A DNA stretch of 64,000 nucleotides from contig JACRML010000027.1 of the NCBI GenBank assembly GCA_016214995.1, forward strand, positions 1,766 through 65,765, written 5' to 3'. The stretch comes from Deltaproteobacteria bacterium. GTDB taxonomy: Bacteria; Desulfobacterota; GWC2-55-46; UBA9637. This document shows, in pieces, positions 179 to 40,598 of this stretch; position 1 is the first letter of the stretch, and the number at the start of each line of letters is the position of its first letter. Under the pieces are notes generated by a model. It made no database searches, had not been told where the DNA came from, and saw nothing but the letters and a program-made list of their open reading frames with translations. The translations under genes and the position numbers were made by a program.

Positions 179-183
179 AATTA

Positions 184-262
184 TTAGCGTATAGCGTATA
201 GCGGATAGCGAATAGAAAAACTATACGCTATGCGTCTCTCCTATACGCTATCCGCTATTTCC
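184..262. repeat. Degenerate heptamer-array hairpin (AGCGTAT/AGCGGAT units, then inverse CTATACG/CTATCCG units)
   Basis: agcgtat agcgtat agcggat agcgaat ag ... ctatacgctatgcg ... ctatacgctatccgctatt; period 7, arms roughly inverse-complementary. Confidence 0.7.
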
Positions 263-1298
263 TATCCGGCATTATCTTCACATCAACCGTCATCCCCAAT
301 TTGAAAGGCGTCTTTTCCTTGAGCAGTATCTTCACCTGAATGACCTTCATATCCAGATTCTTGGCAGGATTATTCGGCTTCACCTTTCTCTGCCCGACAT
401 AATCAAAAATCTCCTGAATCTCTCCTTTGAAAACCTTGCCCGGATAGCTGTCTGATGTAACCTCTGCCGGGTCTCCGACCTGTATCCTGCCTATGTCTGT
501 CTCGTCCACTTCTGTGTTTATCCTTGTTCTATCAACATCAGCAACAGCAGCTATCGGTGTTTCAGGGATTGCCGTCTCACCTTCCTCAAGATACTTGCGG
601 ATTACCTTGCCTGAGATTGGAGACTTTATAATTGTCTTTTCCAGAAACCTTTTATAATACTCTACTGTTGCCTCAGCCTGAGACACAGCATCCTTGTAAA
701 TTTTTAATGTCTCCTGTTTCGGCCCTTTTTCCAGAAGCCTTTTCCCTTGTTCCGCTTCTCTGGCTTTTGCCTTTGCAACCTTAAACAAACCCTTCTTTTC
801 ATCAAGAAGCGCCTTTGATATCACGTCCTCTTTGTAAAGCTGTTCATATCTTTCAAGGTTTGTTTTTGCCAACTCCATATCCGCCTCCGCAGCCTCAAGA
901 GCAGCCTCCGCCCTTTTAATCTCCTCTTCCCTTGAGCCAGAGGCAACCTCTTCATACCGCGCCTTTGCAACAGCCAGTTCAGCATCTGCCGCCTTAAACC
1001 TTGCCTGAATATCTTTATTATCCAGCCTTACTATTACCGCGCCTTTTTCTACACGATCCCCTTCATTAACAAAAAACTTGTCAATCCTTGCAATCATATC
1101 AGCACCCACCTCTATCTCCATGCCTGGCATTGCCTCCACCTTTCCTTCAGCGGCCACATACATAGCGGTGGTATGTAATAATGCCTTGTCATCATTCTTG
1201 CCGGCCTTTGTTTCTTGTGTGCCTGATTTTAACAAAAAGAATACGCCTGAAATCAGCAAAGCAATGAAAATTATGGCTGCAAACACCAGCTTTTTCAT
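255..1298 (-). CDS. HlyD/MacA-type periplasmic adaptor (membrane fusion protein)
   Basis: ORF 255..1421. Likely real start is MKKLVFAAIIFIALL (ATG at 1298), giving a signal anchor, long coiled-coil hairpin and beta-barrel region typical of HlyD_D23 adaptors. The 41 upstream codons translate a REP-like palindrome. Confidence 0.85.
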   Translation of the reverse strand: MKKLVFAAIIFIALLISGVFFLLKSGTQETKAGKNDDKALLHTTAMYVAAEGKVEAMPGMEIEVGADMIARIDKFFVNEGDRVEKGAVIVRLDNKDIQARFKAADAELAVAKARYEEVASGSREEEIKRAEAALEAAEADMELAKTNLERYEQLYKEDVISKALLDEKKGLFKVAKAKAREAEQGKRLLEKGPKQETLKIYKDAVSQAEATVEYYKRFLEKTIIKSPISGKVIRKYLEEGETAIPETPIAAVADVDRTRINTEVDETDIGRIQVGDPAEVTSDSYPGKVFKGEIQEIFDYVGQRKVKPNNPAKNLDMKVIQVKILLKEKTPFKLGMTVDVKIMPDRK

Positions 1299-1317
1299 CT
1301 GTCTTTGCTCCGAAAAT

Positions 1318-1410
1318 ACCCCATCCCCACCCCAACCCTCCCCTTGAAGGGGATGGAGTAAAATAGTCTCCTCTCCCTCAGGGAGAGGATTAAGGTGAGG
1401 GTGGGGTAAA
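1318..1410. repeat. REP-like nested palindromic element
   Basis: ccccaccc...tccccttgaagggga...cctctccctcagggagagg...gggtgggg; inner hairpins enclosed by an outer stem. Confidence 0.55.
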
Positions 1411-1437
1411 TTTTCATGCACCTTTGTGAGCCTATGC

Positions 1438-2127
1438 TCATGTGGGTTTCTCCTGACTTATAATTTTTCCGTCCTCCAGATGCACAACCGTATGCGCTAC
1501 ATCTAAAGCATTTGGATCATGACTGACAATAACTACCGCCTTACCTGACTCCACAGCCAGATTTCTCAAAACCCCTAATACATCTTTCCCTGTCCTGGAA
1601 TCAAGGTTTGCCGTAGGTTCATCGGCAAGGATAATCGGCGGCTCACCTGCCAACGCTCTGGCAAAGGCAACCCTCTGTTTCTCGCCTCCGCTCAGATCAC
1701 GCGGATAAAAATCAGCCCTTTCCCCAAGACCTACCTTTTTCAAAAGATTCACGGATTCAGTCTTCAACTCTTTCTTGTCCCACCCCTTGAGCCTTAAAAC
1801 AGCCTCCACATTTTCCGCTGATGTAAGCGATGGGAACAGATTGAATGACTGAAATACAAAACCAAAATACTTTTTCCTGATGTCAGGAAGCGCATCTTCC
1901 GTGAGATTGCCAACCATACGGCCATCCACAACCACATCGCCTTTTGTCGGATGCAGGATGCACCCCATCATGGAAAGAAGCGTTGTCTTGCCTGAACCGG
2001 ACGGCCCCATGATAAGCAGCGCCTCGCCCTTCTTAATGCTGAGTGATACAGAGTCCACAGCCACTACCTTTGCGGCCCCTTCCTGATACACCTTGCTGAC
2101 ATCTAATATTTCAAGTATTGGATTCAT
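1438..2127 (-). CDS. ABC transporter ATP-binding protein (MacB/LolD/DevA-like)
   Basis: Walker A GPSGSGKTTLL, signature LSGGEKQRVAFARAL, Walker B IILADEPTANLD. Confidence 0.95.
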   Translation of the reverse strand: MNPILEILDVSKVYQEGAAKVVAVDSVSLSIKKGEALLIMGPSGSGKTTLLSMMGCILHPTKGDVVVDGRMVGNLTEDALPDIRKKYFGFVFQSFNLFPSLTSAENVEAVLRLKGWDKKELKTESVNLLKKVGLGERADFYPRDLSGGEKQRVAFARALAGEPPIILADEPTANLDSRTGKDVLGVLRNLAVESGKAVVIVSHDPNALDVAHTVVHLEDGKIISQEKPT

Positions 2128-2131
2128 CCGG

Positions 2132-3250
2132 TCACACTCTAAAAACCATAGCAGGGTCTAACTTCCGCACCTTTCTCACAGAAAAATATGCGGATAAAAG
2201 GCATATTAAAAGTATTATAAAAAACAATGAAAGAAATAAACCTGCGCTCAGATATAAAGTTACTCCTGCCTTTTCAACACCGTCTTTTACAAGGAGAATA
2301 AATAGAGCGCCAACCGCATAACCTATGACCGCATTTATGCCGGCCTGGCTGAAGATTATCTTATAAAGGTCTATATTCCTTGCGCCAACAGCCTTTAATG
2401 TGCCGAACTCATGTAGATGCTCCATTGTATTAGCATAAATTGTCTGCCCTACTATAGCCCCGCCGACTGTAAGGCCGAGTATAGCTGTAAGAAAAAAACC
2501 CATACCCATCCCTGTCGTGACAGTCCAATACATAACACTCTTATAAACAAACTCTCTGGTGGTATATACATCATTATCCTTCATAGATGCCTTTAATATC
2601 CTTACGGCATCGCCTATCTTTTCTTTTTCCTTAACCTTTGCAACTATGAATGATGTGTTCCCCGGCGGATAAAAACTCTGCGCATTATTATAGGACATAA
2701 ATATCATCGGGGAAGTGGTGAAGCTCTTTATCCCCTGCGACAGTCCTGCAAGTTTAAACCTGTTCGCGTTTAATTCCCAAATAGTGCCGATTTCTAATCC
2801 GCCAAGCCTTTGCTCAGAGGTCTTGTCAATAATCATATACCTTCCGCCCTTTACATCAAAAGGCTCTCCTGCCAGCATTGACCAGGGCGCGCCAACGGCT
2901 GTGTCTGGGTTATATCCGACTATCTGAACCTGCTCCTGGCCTCCGCCTGCCAATTTTAAAAAACCCCATGTAAGCACAAGCCTCTCTGTCCATGAGATTT
3001 GAGGGAGCGCATTAACCCTGTTTATCCTCTCTTCAGGAAACGGATTTGCAAAATCAAAATTCTGAATATTCCTGGATGCTATCCAGATATCCGCATCAAT
3101 ATGACGGATTATGGCTGTGGCATTTCCCATCATGCCAAGATACATGGAAACCTGAACAATCGTAAGGATGGTGGAAAACGTAATCCCCATCAGGGTTATA
3201 AAAAGCCTCCCCTTTTCATAAAAAAGTGTTTTTATCGCAAGCCAGAACAT
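2132..3250 (-). CDS. ABC transporter permease, FtsX/MacB (DevC-like) family
   Basis: 372 aa: N-terminal TM, large periplasmic domain, C-terminal 3-TM FtsX-like block. Lies 4 nt upstream of the ATPase gene. Confidence 0.85.
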   Translation of the reverse strand: MFWLAIKTLFYEKGRLFITLMGITFSTILTIVQVSMYLGMMGNATAIIRHIDADIWIASRNIQNFDFANPFPEERINRVNALPQISWTERLVLTWGFLKLAGGGQEQVQIVGYNPDTAVGAPWSMLAGEPFDVKGGRYMIIDKTSEQRLGGLEIGTIWELNANRFKLAGLSQGIKSFTTSPMIFMSYNNAQSFYPPGNTSFIVAKVKEKEKIGDAVRILKASMKDNDVYTTREFVYKSVMYWTVTTGMGMGFFLTAILGLTVGGAIVGQTIYANTMEHLHEFGTLKAVGARNIDLYKIIFSQAGINAVIGYAVGALFILLVKDGVEKAGVTLYLSAGLFLSLFFIILLICLLSAYFSVRKVRKLDPAMVFRV

Positions 3251-3312
3251 AAATTTAAAACAATTATGAATTAAGAATTAAATTCCTAATTCGTAATCCC
3301 TAATTTTTAATG

Positions 3313-3430
3313 CTCGTTCCCAAGCTCTGCTTGGGAACGCAATTGCTGTTGAAGCTCCAGCTTCGTAAAAAGATTTTGAAGCAGGAGCTTCCGGGACATC
3401 TACATTCCCAAGCTGGAGCTTGGGAACGAG
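3313..3430. repeat. REP/MITE-like element built from four small palindromes
   Basis: cgttcccaagctctgcttgggaacg (3315-3339), gaagctccagcttc (3351-3364), gaagcaggagcttc (3379-3392), ttcccaagctggagcttgggaa (3406-3427). The first and last are inverse copies. ORF 3278..3466 is its spurious translation. Confidence 0.65.
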
Positions 3431-3437
3431 AAGATAA

Positions 3438-3514
3438 GTAAGGAGTAGGCAGTAAGCAGCAGACAAAACGTTTCATTCTTTTACTGCATACTCCATACTG
3501 CTTACTGCTTACTC
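3438..3514. repeat. Degenerate heptamer-array hairpin (GCAGTAA family)
   Basis: ggagtag gcagtaa gcagcag ... ctgcata ctccata ctgctta ctgctta ctc. The right arm supplies the last codons (ESKQ*) of the adaptor gene. Confidence 0.7.
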
Positions 3515-4641
3515 TCTTTCGTTTCTATTCTTGCTCCGTCAAATAATTGGTCAAGGCCTGTTGTGGCAACCTTCTCGCCAGGCTTAATCCCTTCCATAAT
3601 CTCCACCCATCCTTGCTCACGGATGCCTGTTTTTACAAAACGTTCTGCGGCCGCACCATTCACAATCACATAAACCTTGTTTATACCTGCAAAAGAATAT
3701 ACAGCAGTCTCAGGGACAAAGGGGACGGTTTTTTCTTGCTTTGTTTTTATAACAACCTTGGCAAAAAAGCCTGATTTCAGCATATTGCTGTGATTTGGCA
3801 CCCTGGCCTCAATGGAAAACGTTCTCGTCTTTTCATCAATTGACGGGCTTACACGAATAATCTTGCCGGCAAATACATGATCAGGGAATGCATCTATGCG
3901 GACGGTAATATCCTGTCCAACATCTATCTCCGGGGCAAATGATTCCGGCACAGCGCCCTGAAATTTCAGCGGGTCATTTTTTACTAATATAAAAAGTGGG
4001 CTCTTGTCTTTTAACGTCTCTCCCGCAGATACAAACCTTTTTTTCACATAGCCTGATATGGGTGATATTATCTCCGTATCTGCAAGACGTTTCTTTGAAA
4101 GCTCAAGCTGGGCCTTTGCCAGATTGACCTGCGCCTCTGCCTGTTTTAACTGGGCGTCTGCAACATCATATTGTGTCTGCATTGCATCTCTTTGACTAAT
4201 AGAAATAACACCTTCCGAGAAAAGATTGACATATCTCTTGAGGTTTGCGCCGGCATCCTGCCATACAGCCTTTGCCCTCTCAAGACTACGGATATTTGTC
4301 TCCAGCAGAGCCTCGGATACGGCAAGATTTGTTTTGGCATCCTTCTGGTCTAATCGCAGCAGGAGGCCGCCTTCATCCACCCCGTCGCCAAGGTCAACAA
4401 AAACCTTATCTACTGTGCCGGCTGCCTCGTTGCCAATAGTTACTTCATCCCACGGGGCAAGGGTTCCTGTTGTCTCAATCGTTCTCTGGATAGCCTTGCC
4501 AACCGTTACTGCGGTAGTGACCTTAAATACTTTATCATCTTTTTTTTCACTTTGCTTGACCGCCCTATTTTCATTAGAGCAGGATGAAAGGACGAGCAGG
4601 GCAGCAAATAGACACAGGGTTATCTTTGCAATATTTTTCAT
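3502..4641 (-). CDS. Efflux RND-type periplasmic adaptor lipoprotein
   Basis: Lipobox LVLSSC, then a biotinyl-lipoyl-like domain, coiled-coil hairpin and beta-barrel architecture. Confidence 0.85.
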   Translation of the reverse strand: MKNIAKITLCLFAALLVLSSCSNENRAVKQSEKKDDKVFKVTTAVTVGKAIQRTIETTGTLAPWDEVTIGNEAAGTVDKVFVDLGDGVDEGGLLLRLDQKDAKTNLAVSEALLETNIRSLERAKAVWQDAGANLKRYVNLFSEGVISISQRDAMQTQYDVADAQLKQAEAQVNLAKAQLELSKKRLADTEIISPISGYVKKRFVSAGETLKDKSPLFILVKNDPLKFQGAVPESFAPEIDVGQDITVRIDAFPDHVFAGKIIRVSPSIDEKTRTFSIEARVPNHSNMLKSGFFAKVVIKTKQEKTVPFVPETAVYSFAGINKVYVIVNGAAAERFVKTGIREQGWVEIMEGIKPGEKVATTGLDQLFDGARIETKESKQ

Positions 4642-4697
4642 TGGAATCCTCGTTCAAATAAAAATAAATTTCTAATTCGTTCACTAAAAATTTCCAA

Positions 4698-6041
4698 TTA
4701 CTTCCCCATCTCCTCCAACAGAATCCCCACTCGTTTCTTTAATTCCAGGATTGCAATCTGTAAATCATATTGTGCATTTGTAAGACCTCGCTGGCTTGAG
4801 ACCAGGGTTGCATTTGCATCAATCACATCAACATTTGTTGCAAGGCCATAGCTGAATTGCTTAAAAACCATATTATAATTCTCTTCTGCAAAAGACATCT
4901 GCCTTTTATACGATTCTATAATGGGATTAAATGCCTCAAGGTTATGAAAAGTCTCCCTTACCTCCAGTTCAATGTCCTTTCTCATTCTTACTCTCTTAAA
5001 TTCAGCCTGCCTTTTTTTACTCTTTGCCTCATTCAGTTCAGCCTTTCTTAAACCGCCTTCAAATATAGGAAAGGTAAAGGTAATTCCTGCATACATACTT
5101 TCTGCATTAAAAAGCGTTGATTTTGGATTCTGATCCCTGTTTGAATACACGCCTTCCAGCTTAAGGCTCGGCAGGAAGTTTCCAACAGCATATTTGACCG
5201 CCTCGTCGGCAATGTCTTCGCCTATTTTACTTTGGATATAATCCTGCCTTTTCTCCAGAGAAAGCGATATCAATCTGTCCAGACCGGCATCTGGGATAGG
5301 TTGAATATCAGGCTCGGCAACCTTAAATTGCTCGGACATACCTATAAAGCGCGCCAGCTTATCTTTCGCCACTAAAAGGTCTTTCTTTGCATTGGCAAGT
5401 TCTGTTTCTGCGCCTGCCACCTCTGCTTCTGCTCGCAACAATATAGCCTTTGTAACCTCTCCAACTTGAAATCTTGCGCTGGCCACCCTCCTCTGCTCTA
5501 TTGCCCTTTTTAAGGCAGCCTCCTTTATTTCTACTGTCTTTTCTGATTTCAAAACAGTGTAATATATTTTTGAAACATTGAGCACAATATCTTCTTTCGC
5601 AGCATCAAGGCTGTATTTGCCTGCCTCTGTCTTTTTCCTGGCCTGCCTTAAGAGGCTCCATTCCTTGCCTCCTGAATAGAGAGGCTGGCTGAGTTTTATG
5701 CTAAAAGATGAGCTGTTGTCGGGTTGAATACTAGACGCTCCGGAGGTCTTGCTTTCAGAATATTCTGTATAATTGCTATCTACAGTAACAGTTGGCATCA
5801 CCTGAGAAATTGCCTTGTCAATCCCTACCTCTGCCTGATACAGGTCTTCCTGAGATAATATAACAGACTCATAGTTAGAAACCGCAAGGAGAGAGGCATC
5901 GGTAAGGGTAATGGTCTTTTCTTCGGCATGAACTACAGTGAACAGTGAACAGTACACGGTGAATAGCAATAAAATTTTTTTGAAATCTGAAATTTGCCCC
6001 CGATTGATTCTATCGGGGGTGAAATTTGAAATTTTATTCAT
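4698..6041 (-). CDS. TolC-family outer membrane efflux protein
   Basis: 447 aa with two OEP repeats. Overlaps the TetR stop by 4 nt. The signal-peptide core is encoded by a CAGTGAA heptamer array (5931-5967). Confidence 0.85.
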   Translation of the reverse strand: MNKISNFTPDRINRGQISDFKKILLLFTVYCSLFTVVHAEEKTITLTDASLLAVSNYESVILSQEDLYQAEVGIDKAISQVMPTVTVDSNYTEYSESKTSGASSIQPDNSSSFSIKLSQPLYSGGKEWSLLRQARKKTEAGKYSLDAAKEDIVLNVSKIYYTVLKSEKTVEIKEAALKRAIEQRRVASARFQVGEVTKAILLRAEAEVAGAETELANAKKDLLVAKDKLARFIGMSEQFKVAEPDIQPIPDAGLDRLISLSLEKRQDYIQSKIGEDIADEAVKYAVGNFLPSLKLEGVYSNRDQNPKSTLFNAESMYAGITFTFPIFEGGLRKAELNEAKSKKRQAEFKRVRMRKDIELEVRETFHNLEAFNPIIESYKRQMSFAEENYNMVFKQFSYGLATNVDVIDANATLVSSQRGLTNAQYDLQIAILELKKRVGILLEEMGK

Positions 6042-6652
6042 ACCTGTCTCCTCTCCATACCCTCAAAAAATATATTCACAAATACATCTATCACTTTTTT
6101 TACAGGCATCTTGAAAAATTTTTTCATACCATAAACCTCCTGCATCATGGTGTAGTGAAGAATCATAGCGAGGAACGCCCTCGCCGCCAGATGTGCATTT
6201 ACATTCTTGAATCTCCCATCCTTTGTAAGGTTGTTGATATATTTTGCCAGATAATCCAGTATTTCCAATCCTCGTGTCTTTATAAATATGTCAGAGAGCT
6301 TATGTCCCTCTAATGCACTGAACATAAGCAGCTTCATAAAAGTTGGGTCTTCAAGATGCTTTTGTATAAGGAAGGAGGCTATCTCTCTAAAAACATCCCT
6401 CCCTTCTTTGTTTTCCAGCCTTTTCATTAAGATGGATTGCCCCAGCTTGTCATTGCACTGCATGTCAATTATAGCGGAATAGAGTTTTTCTTTTTTGGCA
6501 AAATGCTTAAAGATAATTGCCTCACTAATCCCGGCATGCTGTGCTATTTCCCTCGTTGTGGTGCCCTTGAAGCCTTTTTGGGAAAAAAGCCTCATGGCAA
6601 CCTTAACAATCTGGGCATATCTTTCTTCTGCTGTCAATCTCTTTTTGGCCAT
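6038..6652 (-). CDS. TetR/AcrR family transcriptional regulator
   Basis: HTH FSQKGFKGTTTREIAQHAGISEAIIFKHF. Start taken at MAKKRLTAEERY (ATG 6652). Confidence 0.9.
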   Translation of the reverse strand: MAKKRLTAEERYAQIVKVAMRLFSQKGFKGTTTREIAQHAGISEAIIFKHFAKKEKLYSAIIDMQCNDKLGQSILMKRLENKEGRDVFREIASFLIQKHLEDPTFMKLLMFSALEGHKLSDIFIKTRGLEILDYLAKYINNLTKDGRFKNVNAHLAARAFLAMILHYTMMQEVYGMKKFFKMPVKKVIDVFVNIFFEGMERRQV

Positions 6653-6872
6653 TTTGCACACACCTTTTACGGCTGAATTCAGGCAATGCATCTGCATTTT
6701 CTGATACGGTCAGCCCCATGAGAAATGCCCTTCATGAAAACCTAAGAAAATAACCAAGAGTGCAATTCCGAAGGGTAGATTTCTGATTGGGTTAGTGAGT
6801 GCTTACTTTATACCAAGATTTAGAGCTTGTCAAGTGTTGACTGCCGCTGATTGCTTTGATACAATCCCTTTC

Positions 6873-7817
6873 ATGGAAACTTTTCTCACTGATACTCCGA
6901 CCAAGATTAGCTCGTTACAGAAAAATCTGGAAAAGATAATCAAAGGAAAACCGCAAATCATCAAGCAGGCAATAACAGCCCTTATTGCAAGAGGGCATCT
7001 GCTTATAGAAGATATACCTGGGGTTGGCAAGACAACCCTGGCCCATGGGCTAGCGAGGTCGATAAACTGCACCTTCCAGAGGATTCAGTTTACCAGCGAT
7101 CTCCTCCCCTCTGATATAATTGGCGTTACCATTTATAATCAGGAAAGACATGGGTTTGAGTTTAAACCAGGCCCTATATTTGCCAACATTATCCTGGCGG
7201 ACGAGATAAACCGCACCACACCAAAAACGCAGAGCTCACTGCTTGAGGCAATGAACGACAGGCAAGTATCTGTCGATAAGATAACCCATCCCCTGCCGGA
7301 GCCTTTTATGGTGATTGCCACACAAAATTCATTGGAATATGTAGGGACATACCCGTTGCCAGAATCCCAGCTGGACAGGTTTATGATGAGGATAAGGATT
7401 GGCTATCCGGAGGCAGCGGCTGAAAAGGAAATACTACTCTCATCTTCCACCGAACTTCAGCCTCAACGTCTTAATCCTGTTTTATCCACAGAGGAAGTAA
7501 TATACCTCCAAACGCTTGTAGATAAAATAAAAGTGGATGACGACCTGGTGGAATATATCCTGACAATTGCAGATGCTACAAGGAAATCCAGCATGTTGCG
7601 ATTGGGCGCAAGCCCCCGCGGAGCCATGATGTTGTATCGCGCTGCCCAGGCATTTGCCCTTGTAGAAGGCAGAGCATACTGCGTCCCTGATGACATAAAG
7701 AGGCTTTCTATATCTGTTTTAAGCCACAGGGTAGTCGCTATGCAAGGCATGGAAGAGGAAACAGATGTTGAAGGAATTATACAAGAAATAGTAGATGGGA
7801 TAGAAGTACCGTTATAG
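6873..7817 (+). CDS. MoxR-family AAA+ ATPase
   Basis: Walker A GVGKTT, Walker B ILADEINR, and the typical MoxR C-terminus. ATG at 6873 (METFLTD) preferred over the upstream GTG. Confidence 0.9.
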   Translation: METFLTDTPTKISSLQKNLEKIIKGKPQIIKQAITALIARGHLLIEDIPGVGKTTLAHGLARSINCTFQRIQFTSDLLPSDIIGVTIYNQERHGFEFKPGPIFANIILADEINRTTPKTQSSLLEAMNDRQVSVDKITHPLPEPFMVIATQNSLEYVGTYPLPESQLDRFMMRIRIGYPEAAAEKEILLSSSTELQPQRLNPVLSTEEVIYLQTLVDKIKVDDDLVEYILTIADATRKSSMLRLGASPRGAMMLYRAAQAFALVEGRAYCVPDDIKRLSISVLSHRVVAMQGMEEETDVEGIIQEIVDGIEVPL

Positions 7818-7886
7818 GCGCGTAGCTGATAGCTGATAGTTGATAGCTGTTAATTTTTTACTGTGAGCTATGAACTATGAGCTATT
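7818..7886. repeat. Degenerate heptamer-array hairpin (TAGCTGA / GAGCTAT units)
   Basis: tagctga tagctga tagttga tagctgt ... gagctat gaactat gagctat. The right arm contains the DUF58 start codon. Confidence 0.7.
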
Positions 7887-8962
7887 TATCCGCACCATTG
7901 CCTTGGCTTACTGCGGCTGCCAACCTGCTGACCAGACAAAAGCAAATCAGCAAAAAGAAAATAGGTTTATTTGTCCTGCCAAGAACGCTCTCATTTACAA
8001 AAGAAGGAAAAAGGTTTATTGCAATCCTTTTTGTCATTGGTATAGCCGCCATCAATACAGGAAATAATCTCCTCTATCTTATTGTAGCAATGATGCTGTC
8101 CATTATAGTTATATCAGGGATACTTTCAGAATCTACATTAAGAGGCGTGGAGGTATGCAGAATATTACCAAGACATATATTCGCAGGAACTCCGGTAATA
8201 GTGAAATGGAACATTTCAAATAAAAAGAGGATTTTCCCGTCATTCTCTCTTGTAATAGACGAAGCCCTTCCCAATAAACTTACAGCAGAATCAGGTTATA
8301 TCCTGAAATTGCCTGCACGCACCACTCTTGCACAAATACGGCCGTATATATTCCATAAAAGAGGGCTGTATAAACTGGAAGGATTTAAAACAAAAACCAG
8401 TTTCCCATTCGGTTTTTTTCTAAAAGGAAGAAGACTGGATATGCCGGAAGATGCGCTGGTATATCCGAATATAAGACCCACGAAGCAAATAGCCGCAGTA
8501 AAATTTTCAAAAAGCGGGGAATTACCTGAAAAGATAAAAGGCTACGGAACACACCTTTACAGCCTCAGGGATTATACGCTTATGGATGATGCAAGAGTTA
8601 TCCATTGGAAGTCAACAGCAAAAACTACAAAATTAATGGCAAAAGAATTTGAACAAGAGGGAAATAAAAAGGTGAAGATTATCTTTTATAATACACTCAC
8701 TGAATCCACATCCCTCCCCGCTAATAAAGAGGAAACCATCAGCGGTTTAAAAGATGAGTTTGAAGAGAAGGTAGAGGAAGCTGCCAGCCTGGCCAATTAT
8801 TTTATAACTTCCGGTTTTGAGGTTGGTTTTAAAAGTCTGACCACAGAATTGCCATGCAGGTCAGGTAAAGAACAGCTTTACAGGATACTAAGAGAGCTTG
8901 CACTAATAGAGCCTGCTGCAGGCAGTAAAAATATGCCTCTGACTGTGGTTGTAAGCAAATAA
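7877..8962 (+). CDS. DUF58 (vWA-like) domain protein
   Basis: Two N-terminal TM segments and a LRDYTLMDDARVIHWKSTAKTTKLMAKEFEQE motif typical of DUF58. Classic partner of MoxR. Confidence 0.8.
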   Translation: MSYLSAPLPWLTAAANLLTRQKQISKKKIGLFVLPRTLSFTKEGKRFIAILFVIGIAAINTGNNLLYLIVAMMLSIIVISGILSESTLRGVEVCRILPRHIFAGTPVIVKWNISNKKRIFPSFSLVIDEALPNKLTAESGYILKLPARTTLAQIRPYIFHKRGLYKLEGFKTKTSFPFGFFLKGRRLDMPEDALVYPNIRPTKQIAAVKFSKSGELPEKIKGYGTHLYSLRDYTLMDDARVIHWKSTAKTTKLMAKEFEQEGNKKVKIIFYNTLTESTSLPANKEETISGLKDEFEEKVEEAASLANYFITSGFEVGFKSLTTELPCRSGKEQLYRILRELALIEPAAGSKNMPLTVVVSK

Positions 8963-8967
8963 TGTCT

Positions 8968-9004
8968 GATTACACAGATTAGGTAGGAGTAAGATTACAC
9001 AGAT
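8968..9004. repeat. Two direct copies of the 12-mer GATTACACAGAT
   Basis: Copies at 8968-8979 and 8993-9004. Confidence 0.8.
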
Positions 9005-9104
9005 TTAAGCATGGTCATCAATCAGTATAACCCAAAAATAGACATTGATTTTTGGGTTATAATCACTCTCTTGATTTGTGTAATCATGCAAGGATTATAC
9101 ATCG

Positions 9105-11174
9105 ATGAGATTTTCTGCATACTTCATTCTAATCTCTTATCTTATGGCAGGCACAGGGCTTGTGGCAGTCAGCCTGACCAATATAATAAGCCCTGTCTTT
9201 CTTATAGCAACGGGTATTCTTATATCCTTAAGTTTTTTCTTAAGCATTCTTGGTAAGCCCATTAATATACAGCGGCTTGTTTGGAACAGCCTTGCAATAA
9301 TTATATTGGCAGCCGGCCTTATAGACTATCTTCTTATATCACTCTCACTTATAGATGCGTCAGTCCGTTTTCTCACCATATTAATGGTTGCCAAACTCTT
9401 TGACCTCAAGACAAACAGGGATTATGCCACATTATATCTGCTGACATTTTTCCAGCTTCTTGCAGCATCTGCATCAACAGTAAATCTTTCATTTTTATTT
9501 GCTCTGGCATTATACATTCTGACGGGCATATGGGCGCTTACAATATTTAATCTTAAAAGAGACTGGGAAGAAAAATCAGTTGCCCATAATGAGATAGCAA
9601 AGAATATTCTCGACCCATATTTTTTCATCGTAACCGCAGGGCTTGCGGCTTTATCCCTTATAATCACCCTCTCCCTATTCTTTGTCATACCAAGGATGGG
9701 CGTAGGATTTTTTCCAAAACAGACCGCTGATACCATAAAAATATCGGGTTTTTCAGAAAAGATAGATATTGGAGACCTTGGACCAATCAAGCTGGACCCT
9801 TCGATAGTTATGCGAGTAGAATTGTCTGGCTATAAAACCCCTGCCACGTCCCGCCTGTATTTCAGGGGAATATCATTTGACACTTACAATGGCGCACAGT
9901 GGCAGCAAACAATAAAAGAGTTGGTAGCATTGCATAAAAACAGCAAAGGCATATGGAATTTAAAATCCGAAATCCAAAATTCAAATTCTGAAATTATTAT
10001 ACAAACAATCCTTCTGGAGCCAATAGAAACAAATGTCATCTTTGCAGCATCCACAGGCATAGGAGTTTCCGGCAATTTTCAGAATATAGCTGCCGACAAG
10101 ATGGGTTCATTTTATCTGCCGGCCCCGTTTTATTCCAGAATTGAATACACTGCATATTCCTTGCTGCCGGCTCACCCTAAACCCATATTGCCGGAACAGA
10201 GTTATTATAAAGAGGTGCCTTTGCAGTATCTTCATATACCATCCGGCCTTGATAGAGTTTCTGTGCTTGTTAAAGGCATCACCTCGGGTAAAAAGACACC
10301 GCTTGATAAGGCAATTTCAATAGAGGAATATCTCAAAAAAAATTACCGCTACACACTAAGCCCAGGCATCCCAGATAGAAGCATTCGGAAACAGGAAGGC
10401 AAAAACCCGGTAGAAGATTTTATTTTTTATACAAAGGCAGGCTACTGCGAACAATATGCAACCACAATGGCAATCATGCTGCGAACCATAGGCATACCTA
10501 GCAGGATTGTGACAGGTTTTCTGCCGGGAGAGTGGAACAAATTTGGGAATTATTTCATCATACGCAACAGAGATGCGCATTCGTGGGTAGAGGCTTACAT
10601 GCCTGGCGCAGGCTGGACTACATTTGATCCAACACCTTCTGCTGACACAGTTGGGGCAATGCCGGCGGCAACGACCGCTATAGGCCTGTATATTGATACG
10701 CTGAAGTGGAAATGGAATAGATATATAGTAAATTATTCTTTCCAAGATCAGATGAATCTGGCAAAGACGGTAGAAGGTAAAGGCCGCTCCATGCTGTCAA
10801 AGTTACGAGGGAGTTTTAATACCAAAACCGTAGCCTCTAAGTGGAAAGATATGCTCCTATTGATAACAGCGGTGGTAATTGCAGCTATTATTCTTATAAC
10901 CATAAGAAGCTTGGTTTTGAGGGCAAAAGGCAAGACAAGATGGCCGAATACCCCGCTGTTTTATAAAGATATGTTAGTGCTTTTGGCAAAAAAGGGTAAG
11001 ACAAAAAAGACGGGTGAAACTGCACTGGAATTTGCTGACTCAGTAGCTATTGAAGGGGTTAAGGCTGCAACAGATATTTATTATAATATAAGATTTGGCG
11101 GGCATAAACCAACAGACGAGGAAAAGGCTCAGATATCGGCTTATTTAATTAGCATACGAAAGACGCTGCCATAG
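9105..11174 (+). CDS. Transglutaminase-like membrane protein (DUF3488 + transglutaminase core)
   Basis: Multi-TM N-terminus and Cys-His-Asp core GYCEQYATTMAIMLR ... RDAHSWVEAY ... WTTFDPTP. Confidence 0.85.
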   Translation: MRFSAYFILISYLMAGTGLVAVSLTNIISPVFLIATGILISLSFFLSILGKPINIQRLVWNSLAIIILAAGLIDYLLISLSLIDASVRFLTILMVAKLFDLKTNRDYATLYLLTFFQLLAASASTVNLSFLFALALYILTGIWALTIFNLKRDWEEKSVAHNEIAKNILDPYFFIVTAGLAALSLIITLSLFFVIPRMGVGFFPKQTADTIKISGFSEKIDIGDLGPIKLDPSIVMRVELSGYKTPATSRLYFRGISFDTYNGAQWQQTIKELVALHKNSKGIWNLKSEIQNSNSEIIIQTILLEPIETNVIFAASTGIGVSGNFQNIAADKMGSFYLPAPFYSRIEYTAYSLLPAHPKPILPEQSYYKEVPLQYLHIPSGLDRVSVLVKGITSGKKTPLDKAISIEEYLKKNYRYTLSPGIPDRSIRKQEGKNPVEDFIFYTKAGYCEQYATTMAIMLRTIGIPSRIVTGFLPGEWNKFGNYFIIRNRDAHSWVEAYMPGAGWTTFDPTPSADTVGAMPAATTAIGLYIDTLKWKWNRYIVNYSFQDQMNLAKTVEGKGRSMLSKLRGSFNTKTVASKWKDMLLLITAVVIAAIILITIRSLVLRAKGKTRWPNTPLFYKDMLVLLAKKGKTKKTGETALEFADSVAIEGVKAATDIYYNIRFGGHKPTDEEKAQISAYLISIRKTLP

Positions 11175-34920: not shown

Positions 34921-35134
34921 GAATACTTATCCTATTTCTTAATATCACTCAAATTGTGGTGCTAACGGGTTAGAAATTATATTTATGATGATTATATATG
35001 TCAAGAAAAATGTTATTTTTTGCTTGACTATACCCTGTTTCTTGGTTAAATAGAGAAAACTTGTTAAATATATAGTTGGGCGGCAGGTGTGGGCAATCGT
35101 AGTTTGTATTCAATCGACCAATAGAGGAAACGAC

Positions 35135-35503
35135 ATGACGACTAGAGACATCATCCAAAACTACTTTGATAGCCTCAAACAGAAGAGTGGGTGGAAGGCC
35201 TTCTTGGCTGATGAAATGACGTTCACCAGCTTTGTTAGCCCGATTAAGCGGGTCGCGGGTAAAGGTGCGTACCTTGAAGCCACAAAGCGCTTCTTCTCCA
35301 TGATCACCGCAGTGGAGGTAAAAAACCTTATTGTGGATGGAGACAGAGCTTGCGCTTTGACCCGATACGAACTTCAGCCGCCTGGCGGCCCTGTCTTTGA
35401 CAGCCACGTCGCCGAAGTATTCGAGGTACGAGATGGAAAGATCGCGTCTCTTGACATCTACTTTGACAGCACGCCTTTCCCAAAGCCTCCGACTGCCGCC
35501 TAA
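35135..35503 (+). CDS. SnoaL/NTF2-like (ketosteroid-isomerase fold) protein, integron cassette 1
   Basis: GAGGAA-N5-ATG; MTTRDIIQNYFDSLKQK...FEVRDGKIASLDIYFD, typical SnoaL-like termini. The stop overlaps the R'' box of attC1. Visibly GC-richer than its surroundings. Confidence 0.7.
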   Translation: MTTRDIIQNYFDSLKQKSGWKAFLADEMTFTSFVSPIKRVAGKGAYLEATKRFFSMITAVEVKNLIVDGDRACALTRYELQPPGGPVFDSHVAEVFEVRDGKIASLDIYFDSTPFPKPPTAA

Positions 35504-35560
35504 CATGGCGTTCGAGAGGGACGCGCCAAAAGCGGCGCGCCCCTCAACTTTACGTTGGCA
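35498..35560 (+). other. attC-like recombination site 1 (63 nt)
   Basis: GCCTAAC-ATGGC-GTTCGAGAGGGACGCGCC-AAAAGC-GGCGCGCCCCTCAAC-TTTAC-GTTGGCA. R''/L''/L'/R' layout with unpaired bases, like classical 60-nt attC sites. Confidence 0.7.
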
Positions 35561-35575
35561 CTCCGCTTCGCGGAG

Positions 35576-35709
35576 TGCCAACGCCGCGCGTATCAATGTT
35601 CTGCTGGCTGGCCTCCGCTTCGCTACGGCCAACCAGCGGATCGAGCGGACTACAGCTACGGCGAGCTCGCTCGCCTTCGCTTCCGCCGCTCATCCGCGCG
35701 GCGTTATAC
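35576..35709 (+). other. attC-like recombination site 2 (134 nt)
   Basis: TGCCAAC-GCCGCGCG ... CGCGCGGC-GTTATAC, an 11-bp perfect basal stem AACGCCGCGCG/CGCGCGGCGTT. Internal stem CTGGCTGGCC/GGCCAACCAG. Confidence 0.55.
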
Positions 35710-35759
35710 ATTAAAAGACATCGGCAGATAACGATAAATTTCCAGCTCTTATTTATTTC

Positions 35760-35788
35760 TTGCCTATAAAAAATAGATTTTATACAAT
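35760..35788 (+). promoter_or_regulatory. Sigma70-like promoter inside cassette, predicted leaderless methyltransferase mRNA
   Basis: TTGCCT (35760-35765), 17-nt spacer, TACAAT (35783-35788). The ATG at 35795 lies 7 nt after the -10 and has no SD. Confidence 0.5.
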
Positions 35789-35794
35789 AATGCC

Positions 35795-36739
35795 ATGAAA
35801 GCATTAGAGACAATAAACCATCTTTTCAGAAAAGAAGAAATAAGCATCGGCAAAACATATCAAATTCAAGCCGAAAGCTCAGGTTTTAGACTACACTATC
35901 AACACCCGAACGGGAAACTTTATCAAGGAGACAGTATCGCTTGGCTAAATTCATTAGAAGACGAGAGTGTAGATTTAATATTTGCTGATCCCCCGTATAA
36001 CATCAATAAAGCAGAGTGGGATAATTTTGAGAGTCAAGAACATTATATAGAGTGGTCATTAAAATGGATTGAACCATCAGCCCGGATTTTAAAGCCGCAC
36101 GGCTCGTTATACGTCTGTGGATTTTCAGAGATATTGGCTGATCTCAAACATCCAACCTCAAAATATTTTAAATCATGTCGCTGGTTAATATGGCATTATA
36201 AGAACAAAGCAAATCTTGGAAACAACTGGGGACGCTCCCACGAAAGCATTATTCATTTTCGCAAATCTTCAAAAGGTAATCTGAACATAGATGATATTCG
36301 TATTCCTTACGGAGCACATACTTTAAAATATCCATCACACCCACAGGCTATAACCAGTCAGTACGGGAATGGCGAGCATCGAGAACATTGGAGGCCACAC
36401 CCAAGAGGCGCAAAACCCAAAGACGTTATAGACATTCCAACCACTTGCAATGGCATGGGAGAAAAAACACCTCATCCCACGCAAAAACCGGAAGAACTTG
36501 TACGTAAGTTTGTTCTGGCATCCTCCAATAAAGATGATATTGTTCTTGATCCTTTTTCAGGTTCAGGCACTACGCTTGTTGTAGCAGAACAGTTAAACCG
36601 TAACTGGTTAGGATGTGAAATAAACACAGAGTATAACGAATTGGCAATTGAACGGCTTGAATACGTTAGAAAAATGTCGGTAGAAGATTGGATCGAACAT
36701 GACAGAAAAGTTCAAGAGAGACGGGAGTCTATCAGGTGA
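35795..36739 (+). CDS. Type II DNA methyltransferase, beta-class (N6-adenine or N4-cytosine)
   Basis: Motif IV IFADPPYN precedes motif I LDPFSGSGTT (beta permutation). Confidence 0.9.
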   Translation: MKALETINHLFRKEEISIGKTYQIQAESSGFRLHYQHPNGKLYQGDSIAWLNSLEDESVDLIFADPPYNINKAEWDNFESQEHYIEWSLKWIEPSARILKPHGSLYVCGFSEILADLKHPTSKYFKSCRWLIWHYKNKANLGNNWGRSHESIIHFRKSSKGNLNIDDIRIPYGAHTLKYPSHPQAITSQYGNGEHREHWRPHPRGAKPKDVIDIPTTCNGMGEKTPHPTQKPEELVRKFVLASSNKDDIVLDPFSGSGTTLVVAEQLNRNWLGCEINTEYNELAIERLEYVRKMSVEDWIEHDRKVQERRESIR

Positions 36740-37653
36740 CATTATCAAAAATAGTCAAGATTGCATCAAATAAGGAAAAATTCTTAACTCTCAAAGATTA
36801 TATCGGATTTTGCAAGTCTTATTTAGAAGTTATTGCTGATGGACTTCAAGCGGTAATAATATCCCAGAACGAAAACCATTACCGTTTTTATCAGTATAAA
36901 AAGGACGGTCATTTCAACATTACGAGACCAATTAATTCAAATCTGATGTATGAATTTTCTGATGTCTCAACGATTGAAAAAGAGTTTTTGAAAATCCTCC
37001 ACTCGGTTAGAGACATTCCCGCAAATGATAAGCATAACCGCGAATTGATAAGACGAGGCATATACACTGTTCAACAATCAATCGGTGCAGCACTTGACGC
37101 TTTACCTGCTGGTGCATCGAACATAGCCAGAAAAGTTAATGGAGATCTTTTTGAGAGGTTTATCCAACTGTTGATTAAAGAAATAGGGGTCAAATGCAAG
37201 ACGGGGACTGTACAAGTTCCGGTATATCTCAACAATGAACTCCAGTTTCATATGAGTTATCAGCATGACCTTCTTCTATACAATAATGATGACTTGAAGG
37301 TTATAGGGTCAGTAAAAACTTCAAGCAAAGATAGAATTGACAAAATATTTCTAGATAAGTTTCTTTACTGTAAACTAACAAATACTATGCTCCCGCATAT
37401 CGCTATTTTCCTGAATGATGTGCAAAGAAAAAACAGCAAGCGGCAAGATGAATATGGAATTAATGCTACCTTCCTTCCCGGACATTTCAAAGCTTTTACA
37501 GTCAAATTAAACCCGCTTGATGGGGTCTATTATTGTGACATTAGACCGAATATGGAGACAGACGACCTCTTGAAAAAACATATACGAACAATAGACCACT
37601 TTTTTTGTTCCGATATTTGGTCTTTCATAGAGAGTTCAAGGCTTATAATTTAA
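36736..37653 (+). CDS. Putative type II restriction endonuclease (PD-(D/E)xK candidate)
   Basis: GTG start overlaps the methyltransferase stop (GTGA). Candidate catalytic block HDLLLYNNDDLKVIGSVKTSSKDR (D ... SxK ... DR) recalls Cfr10I/NgoMIV-type enzymes. No other family assignable. Confidence 0.6.
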   Translation: MTLSKIVKIASNKEKFLTLKDYIGFCKSYLEVIADGLQAVIISQNENHYRFYQYKKDGHFNITRPINSNLMYEFSDVSTIEKEFLKILHSVRDIPANDKHNRELIRRGIYTVQQSIGAALDALPAGASNIARKVNGDLFERFIQLLIKEIGVKCKTGTVQVPVYLNNELQFHMSYQHDLLLYNNDDLKVIGSVKTSSKDRIDKIFLDKFLYCKLTNTMLPHIAIFLNDVQRKNSKRQDEYGINATFLPGHFKAFTVKLNPLDGVYYCDIRPNMETDDLLKKHIRTIDHFFCSDIWSFIESSRLII

Positions 37654-37658
37654 GAAAT

Positions 37659-37791
37659 GTATAACAAGTCATTGGAGTGAACGAGTGCCACAGGACACTT
37701 TTTCAGTTGAGCAGAGCTTTAAGGTTTCCAAATCGTTTTCATGCTCTTTAACATTTTGCAGTGGCACTCGTCGCTCAATTTTACGTTAAAC
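37659..37791 (+). other. attC-like recombination site 3 (133 nt)
   Basis: GTATAAC-AAGTC-ATTGGAGTGAACGAGTGCCAC ... GTGGCACTCGTCGCTCAAT-TTTAC-GTTAAAC. R' fits GTTRRRY. R'' is the exact complement of the GTTATAC that opens this cassette. Confidence 0.7.
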
Positions 37792-37843: not shown

Positions 37844-38939
37844 TTATTTTCCCCTCAAAAGGAATGCCTCCATAAACTCATCCAATTTTCCATCCAGCAC
37901 AGCATCTACATTTCCTGATTCAAAACCTGTTCTGTGGTCTTTGATTAAACGATACGGCTGCAGCACATAGGAGCGAATCTGACTCCCCCATGTTATCTCT
38001 TTTTTCTCCTTATGGAACTGATCCATTTTCTCTTCCTGTTCTTTGAGCTTTAATTCATAAAGCCTTGACCGCAGTATCTTCATGGCCAATGCCCTGTTTT
38101 TATGCTGACTTCTTTCAGCCTGGCATGCAACTATTATGCCGCTCGGCACATGCGTTATCCTCACGGCGGTTTCCACCTTGTTGACATTCTGACCGCCAGC
38201 TCCGCCTGACCTGAATGTGTCAACCTTTAAATCAGTATCTTTTACGTCCACTTCAATATCATCTTCAATTTCAGGATAGACAAACACAGATGCAAAGGAT
38301 GTGTGTCTCCGCTGGTTGGCATCAAACGGCGATATTCTGACAAGGCGATGCACGCCAACCTCTGCCTTAAGATAGCCATAGGCATACTCACCCTCTATGG
38401 TCAAGGTAACACTCTTTACCCCTGCCTCTTCTCCTGCCTGATAATCAACTACCTCTACCCTGTATCTGTTTTTTTCTGCCCATCTTGTATACATCCGCAG
38501 AAGTATCTCTGCCCAATCCTGGGCCTCCGTGCCGCCGGAACCTGGATGAATTGACAGAATGGCGCTGAGCCTGTCATGTTCTCCGCCGAGCATCCTCTGG
38601 ATATCCAGATGATGCATCCGTTTTTCTGTATCGGATAATTTGTCTTCTGCCTCTTTGGCTGTTCCGGGGCTCTGCTCCGAGACAGCAAGCTCCAAAAGCA
38701 CTGAGGCATCTTCAAGGTCTTTGCCAATGCTGTCAATTGAAGCAATCTCTGACTTTAAAGCCGCCTGTATTTTCAGCAGGTTTTGCGCCTCATGAGCCTT
38801 TTCCCATAGGGCAGGGTCTGCAACTAATTTCTCTAGCTCTCCCAGTCTTTTAGCCTTTGAATCCAAGTCAAAGATAACCTCGTATCTCAATCAATCTGTT
38901 TTGCAGCCCCTTCAGCCTCTCCTGAATCTCGTCAAACAT
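37844..38939 (-). CDS. prfB: Peptide chain release factor 2 (programmed +1 frameshift)
   Basis: ATG 38939 gives [23 protein letters not shown], then in-frame TGA at 38870-38868. The +1 frame continues [10 protein letters not shown]... with SPF and GGQ ([11 protein letters not shown]) motifs. Confidence 0.92.
38867..38873 (-). promoter_or_regulatory. RF2 autoregulatory +1 frameshift site CTT TGA C
   Basis: GAGGT TAT CTT TGA C on the minus strand: SD-like element, slippery CUU, UGA followed by C. Confidence 0.9.
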
Positions 38940-38954
38940 GTTTATTCCCCTCTT

Positions 38955-40598
38955 TTATTTATTTTTTGACCTATTTAAACCTAAAACCCATAACCCATAG
39001 CCTGCAACTATAATCATGCACCCGATTGCAAATATATCACCATATCTTGAATAGAATGTAAATTGGTTTATATCCTTTATTTTGATATATCCCGCCATGG
39101 CTTCTCTTGTAAATATATCGCTTTTCAATATAATTCTCCCGACAGGGTCAATCACCCCGCTTACGCCTGTATTCGCTGCCCTTATTAAGAATACCTTATT
39201 TTCCACAGCCCGAAATACCGCTTGAGAAAAGTGCTGATAGGGCGCCGATGTCCTGCCGAACCATGCATCGTTTGTTATATTTACAAGAAACCCCGCCCCC
39301 TCATTGATAAAACCCCTTGCAAGCTCTGGAAATATTGATTCAAAGCATATCAAGACCCCGAAACTATCGCCGTCCAATTCAAGCGGTTTAAGCCATTTTC
39401 CGGAGCTGAAATCTCCAACTCCTACAACAAGCTTATGTATAAACGGCAGATAATTTTTGAGCGGCACATATTCTCCAAACGGGACAAGATGGATTTTATC
39501 ATATTTCCCAACAAGCTCACCCTTTGGCGATATGAGAAAGGCGCTGTTATAATATTTTACTTCACCGTCAAAGCCTAGCCCGTATGCATCGTTGCCGGTA
39601 AAGAGGTAGGCATTGGCCTCCCTGGGCAAATTAAATACCTCAGGGCCTAACTCTTTATCAGATTGAAGATAGAATGGGATTGCTGTTTCAGGCCAGATAA
39701 TGAGCCTTACCCCTTGTTTTGCCAATGCCATGTTTAAATTTTTATAAATATCCACGGTCTCTTTTTTAAAAGATATATCCCATTTTCTGCCCTGGTCTAT
39801 ATTGCCCTGAGCAATGCCTATTTTTAAGGTTTTCCAATTTTGCGATATCTTGTCTGTCTCATATATTCTGAAAAAACCATAAATCAAAACAATAATTAAA
39901 ATGAAAGAAACAACAAACCCGCTTTTTAAGAAAGGTGAAAGCTGAAAGCTTACAGTTGATAGTTCTTTATCTTCTTTGAGCTTTGAGCTTTTAGCTTGTA
40001 TCGCAAGAAATATAAACATATTTACCATGACTATCAAAAAAGAAACGCCGTATACGCCTGTAATATCCGTTATCTGGATAATGGGAAGGAGTGAAGACTG
40101 GGAATAGCCTAAAAGAACCCATGGGAAGCCTATGGTAATCATGTTAGTCCTTATGTATTCCAGGCCAACCCATAATGACGAGGTAAACAAAACCTTTAAT
40201 AATAAATTTGTTTTTATGGATAATACAATTGAGGTGCCAAATCCAAAGGCAGCGAAGAAAAGGGCAAGATATAATACCAGCAAAAGGAGAACCAAAATAC
40301 TGGTGAAGAACGGAACACCTCCGTAATTAACCATTGAGTTCACCACCCAATAGACTGTGCCAAGAAAAAAGATAATGCCCCACAAAAGACCGAGTAAAAA
40401 CCCTCTTTTGCAAAATTTAGGCAAGGAAATTCCAGCGCCTTTCCTGACCCCCGCCCCCTGACTCCCGACTGCTGTATCACTAAGCGCAAAGAAAAATGGC
40501 ACCATCCCAACCCATGCAAAAAAACCAATATCAATGGGCGGGAATGCTGCAATAAGCATGGCCCCTGAAAGTATGCTCAGAAAAATAGTGCGCGTCAT
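38955..40598 (-). CDS. lnt: Apolipoprotein N-acyltransferase
   Basis: Multi-TM N-half and CN-hydrolase domain with IIWPETA, K and VLICFES catalytic motifs. Confidence 0.9.
   Translation of the reverse strand: MTRTIFLSILSGAMLIAAFPPIDIGFFAWVGMVPFFFALSDTAVGSQGAGVRKGAGISLPKFCKRGFLLGLLWGIIFFLGTVYWVVNSMVNYGGVPFFTSILVLLLLVLYLALFFAAFGFGTSIVLSIKTNLLLKVLFTSSLWVGLEYIRTNMITIGFPWVLLGYSQSSLLPIIQITDITGVYGVSFLIVMVNMFIFLAIQAKSSKLKEDKELSTVSFQLSPFLKSGFVVSFILIIVLIYGFFRIYETDKISQNWKTLKIGIAQGNIDQGRKWDISFKKETVDIYKNLNMALAKQGVRLIIWPETAIPFYLQSDKELGPEVFNLPREANAYLFTGNDAYGLGFDGEVKYYNSAFLISPKGELVGKYDKIHLVPFGEYVPLKNYLPFIHKLVVGVGDFSSGKWLKPLELDGDSFGVLICFESIFPELARGFINEGAGFLVNITNDAWFGRTSAPYQHFSQAVFRAVENKVFLIRAANTGVSGVIDPVGRIILKSDIFTREAMAGYIKIKDINQFTFYSRYGDIFAIGCMIIVAGYGLWVLGLNRSKNK

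Follow-up and report, generated by a model that had tools for sequence, protein, structure and literature searches.

Integron cassettes are already known to carry restriction-modification (R-M) systems, as cited in PMC9892861. In a survey of cassette-borne defence, 783 complete defence systems were found in cassettes, none of them with more than two components (Darracq et al. 2024, bioRxiv 10.1101/2024.07.02.601686). Restriction of types II and IV ranked among the prevalent systems, at least one cassette carried its own promoter and 73% of the integron defence systems were located in Vibrio (bioRxiv 10.1101/2024.07.02.601686). Here, we characterize an R-M cassette in a stretch of 64,000 nucleotides (nt) from a Deltaproteobacteria bacterium (contig JACRML010000027.1; hereafter the window, to which all positions refer). 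Next to an integron integrase gene, intI, an array of three cassettes was found, the third and last of which encodes a DNA methyltransferase (M) and a restriction endonuclease (R). An earlier note on this DNA had taken the unit for a type II R-M system that is complete with its two genes and occupies one attC-bounded cassette. This proposal is supported by family and fold assignments, by the linkage of M and R, by purifying selection and by evidence on the cassette boundaries. Based on these results, we are highly confident that the locus represents a complete and orthodox two-gene type II R-M operon forming the last cassette of a small chromosomal integron.

Restriction endonucleases of the CCGG family are PD-(D/E)XK enzymes whose active site is permuted (PD...K...D/E); they also have a glutamate upstream and, for recognition, the motif R-(D/E)R. 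At the last acidic position of the active site, Kpn2I has Q while AgeI and BsaWI have D (PMC6344858). R matched the REBASE-derived PADLOC model REase_II PDLC03436 over its full length (E 5.1e-104), and scans of Pfam and NCBIfam returned no match for it. This lack of a Pfam or NCBIfam hit is the reason why the earlier reader, who had put forward the 305-residue protein as a PD-(D/E)xK candidate, could name no family for it; the statement holds for these two resources but not for the PADLOC models. A phmmer search against PDB sequences yielded one significant relative, 6ekr (E 1.5e-6, residues 47-300). An AlphaFold2 model of R was built from 49 homologues (predicted local distance difference test, pLDDT, 85; predicted template modelling score, pTM, 0.88). 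Its best PDB match by Foldseek was again 6ekr, the Type IIP restriction endonuclease Kpn2I (E 7.5e-12, template modelling score, TM, 0.67), followed by PspGI (E 2e-4) and then BbvCI, Ecl18kI and AgeI. The predicted Kpn2I-like fold, together with the PADLOC match, bears out the candidate assignment.

When R is aligned to Kpn2I, its predicted catalytic residues E140, D178, K194 and D207 stand opposite E, D, K and Q of that enzyme, and the segment SVKTSSKDR (residues 192-200, 37309-37335) stands opposite PLKITTRER. Residues E140, D178, K194, D207, K198 and R200 are invariant in the 49 homologues while D199 is kept in at least 90% of them. The upstream glutamate on the N-terminal helix and the permuted E...D...K...D/E order of the CCGG family are both found in R, with D as the last acid, as in AgeI and BsaWI. 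Its recognition block reads K-D-R, compared with R-E-R in Kpn2I. The lead of the earlier note, which pointed to Cfr10I/NgoMIV-type enzymes, was thus right in substance, given the kinship with Kpn2I and the permuted site, although the R-(D/E)-R motif itself is missing. Judged from alignment and the structural model, R is a distant homologue of Kpn2I and a predicted nuclease of the CCGG structural family, other named members of which are Cfr10I, Bse634I, NgoMIV, SgrAI, AgeI, BsaWI, PfoI, PspGI, Ecl18kI and EcoRII. R and Kpn2I (PDB 6EKR; T|CCGGA) are similar in size (ca. 300 amino acids, aa), but their sequence identity is only ca. 17% and R falls into PADLOC/REBASE cluster PDLC03436 rather than PDLC03502.

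The R family comprises 4,272 protein clusters at E <=1e-3. Among the 120 best homologues (P0001-P0120), database names are nearly all "hypothetical protein", and members are annotated as hypothetical in genomes because no Pfam or NCBIfam model exists. A tblastn search of plasmids for R returned only two Lactiplantibacillus plasmids (44.5% identity, both annotated hypothetical), and a full-text literature search for R peptide motifs found no paper. We also observed that the family is unusually conserved across phyla, with at least 60% identity among these homologues. A family of more than 4,000 clusters, present in 459 species genomes and lying outside Pfam and NCBIfam, constitutes an annotation gap. 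It can now be recognized as a Kpn2I-like, CCGG-family nuclease with a K-D-R block, and its target would extend the structure-specificity map of the family.

In case of M, the earlier description as a beta-class methyltransferase was confirmed. The protein matched the PADLOC model MTase_II (E 1.1e-70) besides PF01555, and its DPPY motif (motif IV; residues 65-68, 35987-35998) precedes FSGSGTT (motif I; residues 254-260, 36554-36574), an arrangement shared with M.MboIIA, M.RsrI, CcrM and YhdJ, all members of PF01555. This is the beta-class order, in which the target-recognition region separates the two motifs. The best solved relatives are N6-methyladenine (m6A) enzymes, namely M.MboIIA (E 3.1e-39), CcrM and M.RsrI, and N4-methylcytosine (m4C) enzymes score lower (ca. 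2e-19). Since the closest solved or curated relatives modify adenine and DPPY is typical of them, N6-adenine methylation is likely for M; N4-cytosine methylation would also be compatible with the sequence, as PF01555 covers m4C enzymes too. Scores fall below the equivalog cut-offs (YhdJ: 163 bits compared with 292; CcrM likewise), and the specificity of these two enzymes can therefore not be transferred to M.

M and R are tightly linked. Of the 87 loci fetched, 86 have a homologue of M (62-95% identity) immediately upstream of R, and for the most part M ends where R starts. The GTGA overlap noticed earlier, a candidate for translational coupling, is present in the window, and a GTGA or ATGA overlap is common to loci L001, L003, L005, L006 and L007. 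Comparison with four close relatives gave ratios of nonsynonymous to synonymous substitution rates (dN/dS) of 0.05-0.12 for M and 0.06-0.11 for R, which indicates that both genes are under purifying selection. The operon was found at >=60% identity in 459 species-representative genomes, which cover many bacterial phyla and some archaeal metagenome-assembled genomes (MAGs). An R lacking a nuclease fold or a conserved orphan methylase had been named at the outset as outcomes that would speak against an R-M system; what we found is a predicted Kpn2I-like fold and a partner gene at nearly every locus.

An attC site is built as R''-L''...L'-R', with the core sites RYYYAAC and GTTRRRY. We set the cassette limits by the usual G|TT convention (Table 1). 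The limits proposed before, 35710-37791, give the correct length of 2,082 bp but are shifted by six bases from 35704-37785. The R'' box of the R-M cassette, GTATAAC, differs from RYYYAAC in a single position. It is exactly the sequence obtained by reverse-complementing G plus the first six bases of the cassette (G+TTATAC). This complementarity fits a cassette because circularisation requires it. Both strands of the attC fold into a structure with paired R boxes, an unpaired spacer and an 11-bp perfect L stem plus bulged pairs, and the variable loop is long and AT-rich. Further, the same 2-kb unit is present in four independent contigs with 89-95% nucleotide identity (L001, L005, L006 and L007 being included). 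Matches in three of these (L005, L006, L001) begin at 35702-35705, i.e. at the core site. A different attC precedes the unit in L005 (...CCCGTTGTAC|ATTAAAAG), and in L006 the unit sits within a different array of small co-directional cassettes with recognisable R''/R' pairs, which represents a genuine cassette array. L007 keeps the R-M cassette attC as far as window position 37776. We regard this comparison between contigs as the decisive support for the predicted cassette limits.

Copies of the operon were also found in other cassettes, with quite different attCs. In L010 (Blastocatellia MAG, 1-10897), the operon is enclosed by two attCs of ca. 85% identity, and the array holds at least 14 sites of this type; the copy spacing of ca. 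2,066 bp corresponds to the cassette length. L029, L033, L053 and L027/L028 have their left boundary at a GTTATCG or GTTATAG core together with a short 58-nt attC, and L063 (Bacteroidales) has GTTATAC upstream, GTATAAC downstream and a 104-nt attC. By group, cassette copies comprise the window with L005, L006 and L007 (Thermodesulfovibrionia), L010 (Blastocatellia) and L029, L033, L053 and L063 (Bacteroidota-type clades). A strict boundary-plus-attC test called for R'' within ca. 110 nt after R, R''/R' matching at >=5/7 positions, an arm duplex of no more than -14 kcal/mol and, upstream, a GTTnnnn that complements R''. Of 77 loci, 6 passed this test, compared with 7 of 770 shuffles. A looser detector, for which any NNNNAAC...GTT pair sufficed if its arm duplex reached -9 kcal/mol and the upstream match was present, was discarded since, besides 31 of 86 loci, 73 of 249 shuffles scored positive. 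We make no claim that the L029 integrase is an integron integrase, as its TIGR02249 score of 211 bits lies below the cut-off of 265.

The closest non-cassette relative of the window unit is found in L001, a Nitrospirae MAG with no integron nearby. Its module of 1,969 bp has 89% nucleotide identity to the window and lacks attC and integrase, yet the left end of the cassette is kept almost to the core site. On either side of the module lies a copy of the 5' end of nadD, the two forming a direct duplication of 47 bp (4913-4959 and 6929-6975). Target duplication around an R-M module is a signature that has previously been linked to R-M mobility. In a neighbour-joining tree of M and R combined, cassette copies are spread over four or more positions and have non-cassette copies next to them in each case. 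This scattered distribution would result from either repeated capture or repeated loss of attC. It is possible, if rather doubtful, that the M-R operon became an integron cassette repeatedly, in different phyla, and acquired an attC of the local array type on each occasion. To our knowledge, cassette genesis, i.e. how attCs become attached to genes, is an unsolved question. If the captures were independent, this operon family would provide a rare natural series on this process, and near-identical pairs of cassette and non-cassette copies, such as the window and L001, would serve as before-and-after snapshots.

Some of these loci showed features of their own. L010 represents a large chromosomal integron with attCs of ca. 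92 nt and several tandem units of ca. 242 bp, and its R-M cassette has 74% aa identity. L053 (1-3789) is a 3.8-kb contig whose 51-bp terminal overlap implies a circular assembly path consisting of the R-M cassette and a second attC-bounded segment with two open reading frames (ORFs). Possible explanations are a cassette circle formed by excision, a tandem repeat and an artefact of the assembly. L027 and L028 carry R-M genes with identical scores and query identities in the matched part while being binned apart, as a Thermoplasmata archaeon MAG and a Neomarinimicrobiota MAG from one study (2017 samples GW3 and SWC). Either a shared mobile element or a binning error could account for this.

Several observations weigh against a functional R-M cassette with the features described above. 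In R, K198 replaces the first arginine of the R-(D/E)-R motif, and its target therefore need not contain CCGG; PfoI departs from the motif in a comparable way, its recognition block starting with K-E (PMC6344858). Palindrome avoidance in ca. 772 kb pooled from 84 host loci, calculated against a maximal-order Markov expectation, singled out no recognition site. All palindromes were mildly depleted, the most avoided ones were the generic GGGCCC, CAGCTG and CTCGAG, and the observed/expected ratios of TCCGGA (0.52) and ATGCAT (0.63) were unremarkable. The promoter proposed for the cassette in the earlier note exists as a promoter-like TTGCCT-17-TACAAT, but the claim was overstated: it matches the consensus at 9 of 12 positions, and such matches are no commoner in the region than in shuffles (9 found, 6.9 expected). 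The R-M attC folds with a stability not far above that of shuffles (z -1.7 to -2.2), so that the attC call rests on its architecture and on the comparison between contigs. Finally, R of the window has four extra C-terminal residues (305 compared with 301 aa in the nearest relatives), which stem from a 1-nt difference shortly ahead of the stop codon that these relatives use.

The altered C-terminus, the weak GTG start codon and the existence of one locus with R but without a detectable M (L082), which demonstrates that the pair can break up, would be compatible with an inactive or decaying R and an M acting as an orphan methyltransferase, in an epigenetic or anti-restriction role, that keeps a dead partner. 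We consider this very unlikely, as the R ORF is intact and not truncated, none of the predicted catalytic residues is missing or varies, the dN/dS of R against its four close relatives is low and the GTG start is common to L003, L005, L006 and L007. Similarly, the weak folding score of the attC could be taken to mean that the operon is an ordinary genomic island that landed beside the integron by another route, with flanks that resemble attC as coincidental inverted repeats. Ca. 90% of the loci with the operon show no attC, and the L001 copy has neither attC nor integrase. Such a coincidence seems extremely improbable given that the first six bases exactly complement the cassette's own R'', that similarity to three independent contigs stops at the core site and that the upstream neighbours are other attCs. 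The same holds for the cassette position of the operon in the long L010 array and for the excess of loci over shuffles in the strict test. The data therefore remain best explained by an intact two-gene R-M operon within an integron cassette.

With regard to expression, the cassette has a leader of 91 nt which is conserved as a whole in L001, L005 and L006, and its promoter-like part is conserved in L007 too. The -10 element ends 6 nt ahead of the ATG of M and no obvious Shine-Dalgarno sequence was seen. Because the -10 element is so close to the start of M, a transcript from the candidate promoter would be nearly leaderless. R synthesis is likely coupled to M and probably lower, as the weak GTG overlaps the stop codon of M. 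There is no C protein gene in the R-M cassette and no room for one. Transcription would probably start from the promoter inside the leader, and read-through from the integron may contribute; a scan of the region for promoter consensus sequences found no plus-strand promoter (Pc) for the cassettes comparable in strength to the candidate Pint of intI.

The proposed function follows that of orthodox R-M systems. M would methylate a short target site and thereby protect host DNA while R, using its permuted E140...D178...K194...D207 site of the Kpn2I/Cfr10I/NgoMIV structural family, would cut the same site when unmethylated in a Mg2+-dependent manner and restrict incoming phage or plasmid DNA. The whole 2.08-kb unit could be excised or inserted by IntI via its 134-nt attC. 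For the cassette, the activity of the enzymes, their target sequence, the use of the promoter and a defence phenotype are inferences from these comparisons. The pair might also persist mainly as a selfish addiction module, with phage defence being secondary. In this case, loss of the cassette would lead to post-segregational killing as methylation is diluted, stabilizing the cassette itself and its neighbours. Toxin-antitoxin cassettes have been reported to stabilize integron arrays (bioRxiv 10.1101/2024.07.02.601686), and both the spread of the operon over 459 species genomes in many phyla and the insertion of the L001 module with a 47-bp target duplication fit a mobile selfish element. Nevertheless, an array of only three cassettes, one of which is empty, offers little to stabilize, and since the R-M cassette is the last one, upstream cassettes could still be lost by excision. 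We consider addiction as the main cause of persistence unlikely; the two roles are compatible and nothing in the sequence separates them.

The remainder of the locus agrees with a small chromosomal integron. IntI scored 364 bits against NCBIfam TIGR02249 (cut-off 265), covering model positions 7-313 of 315, and was also matched by Pfam Phage_integrase and Phage_int_SAM_4. Its residues 1-130 form an N-terminal extension of ca. 130 aa outside the region matched by the integron-integrase model. Pfam reported the SAM-like N-terminal domain PF13495 in two stretches of IntI, for which a BLAST self-comparison gave a weak signal (E 0.18). The candidate attI sequence G|TTGGGC is one base off the complement of the cassette 1 R'' GCCTAAC. 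The GC-rich stretch 35498-35709, which looks like one long attC, actually contains two, belonging to the SnoaL cassette and to an ORF-less mini-cassette whose attC folds on the bottom strand with -44.1 kcal/mol (z -4.8). GC content is 41% in the whole window, 52.6% in the SnoaL cassette, 67.8% in the mini-cassette and 37.4% in the R-M cassette; such a sharp contrast between units is expected for cassettes acquired independently. A 220-aa ORF at 34970-35632 on the minus strand overlaps the SnoaL gene and the GC-rich attCs in antisense orientation; we rejected it as almost certainly spurious and due to the high GC content. Apart from a tRNA and a PyrR element, an Rfam scan of the window yielded nothing, and it gave no attC model. 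The prfB gene carries a classical programmed +1 frameshift site (ca. 38885-38960, minus strand): a short ORF ends in TAT CTT TGA C, and the main frame resumes as DLDSKAKRL.

Table 1. Coordinates of the integron, its cassettes and neighbouring genes in the window.
Feature	Position	Strand	Remarks
intI, integron integrase, 445 aa	33583..34920	-	TIGR02249; divergent from cassettes
Candidate Pint, sigma-70 TTGACA-17-TATAAT toward intI	34976..35004	-	12/12 consensus positions; presumed function
Probable attI crossover G|TTGGGC	35075..35081	+	Probable start of cassette 1
Cassette 1	35076..35554	+	SnoaL_2-like ORF 35087-35503, Pfam SnoaL_2 E 1.2e-11
Cassette 1 attC, 63 nt	35498-35560	+	R'' GCCTAAC, R' GTTGGCA; bottom-strand hairpin z -4.0
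ORF-less mini-cassette, 149 bp	35555..35703	+	Nearly all attC; first six bases TTGGCA are the exact complement of its own R''
Mini-cassette attC, 136 nt	35574-35709	+	R'' TGCCAAC 35574-35580, R' GTTATAC 35703-35709
Upstream core site GTTATAC	35703-35709	+	Left end of R-M cassette
R-M cassette, 2,082 bp	35704..37785	+	TT of G|TTATAC to G of G|TTAAAC
Promoter-like TTGCCT-17-TACAAT	35760..35788	+	9/12 consensus positions; function putative
M, beta-class N6_N4 DNA methyltransferase, 314 aa	35795..36739	+	PF01555, E 1.1e-51
GTGA overlap, R start GTG and M stop TGA	36736..36739	+	Read from sequence; candidate translational coupling
R, type II restriction endonuclease, PD-(D/E)XK fold, 305 aa, GTG start	36736..37653	+	PADLOC, Kpn2I-like
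Predicted catalytic residues of R	E140 37153-37155; D178 37267-37269; K194 37315-37317; D207 37354-37356	+	
Predicted recognition block K198-D199-R200 of R	37327-37335	+	
R-M cassette attC, 134 nt	37658..37791	+	R'' GTATAAC 37658-37664, R' GTTAAAC 37785-37791
prfB	37844-38890	-	Housekeeping gene after R-M cassette
lnt-like ORF	38955-40598	-	Assigned by reading its translation

In conclusion, the R-M cassette of the window is a clear but ordinary example of the defence cargo known in integrons, and the locus would be flagged by a standard run of IntegronFinder and DefenseFinder or PADLOC. Its value lies in being a clean and well-delimited R-M cassette outside the Vibrio-dominated data, which supports a broad traffic of integrons in defence genes, and the recurrence of the operon with unrelated attCs offers comparative material on cassette origin. 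As in other cassette-borne defence systems, the module is compact, has no more than two genes and resides in a single attC-bounded cassette of a chromosomal integron. In contrast to the Vibrio-dominated survey, the closest copies of the pair are found in Nitrospirota/Thermodesulfovibrionia MAGs and the array is tiny. These copies suggest that the window itself probably derives from a Nitrospirota (Thermodesulfovibrionia-like) genome, although such evidence on the host is indirect given the mobility of the pair. The Kpn2I system consists of three separately transcribed genes including one for a C protein (PMC6237814), whereas the window carries two overlapping, co-directional genes and no C protein. 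With toxin-antitoxin cassettes, which can likewise have their own promoter, the R-M cassette shares a two-gene composition and a potential addiction effect on the array, but it would act through DNA methylation and cleavage rather than a protein or RNA antitoxin and, at 2.08 kb, it is much larger.

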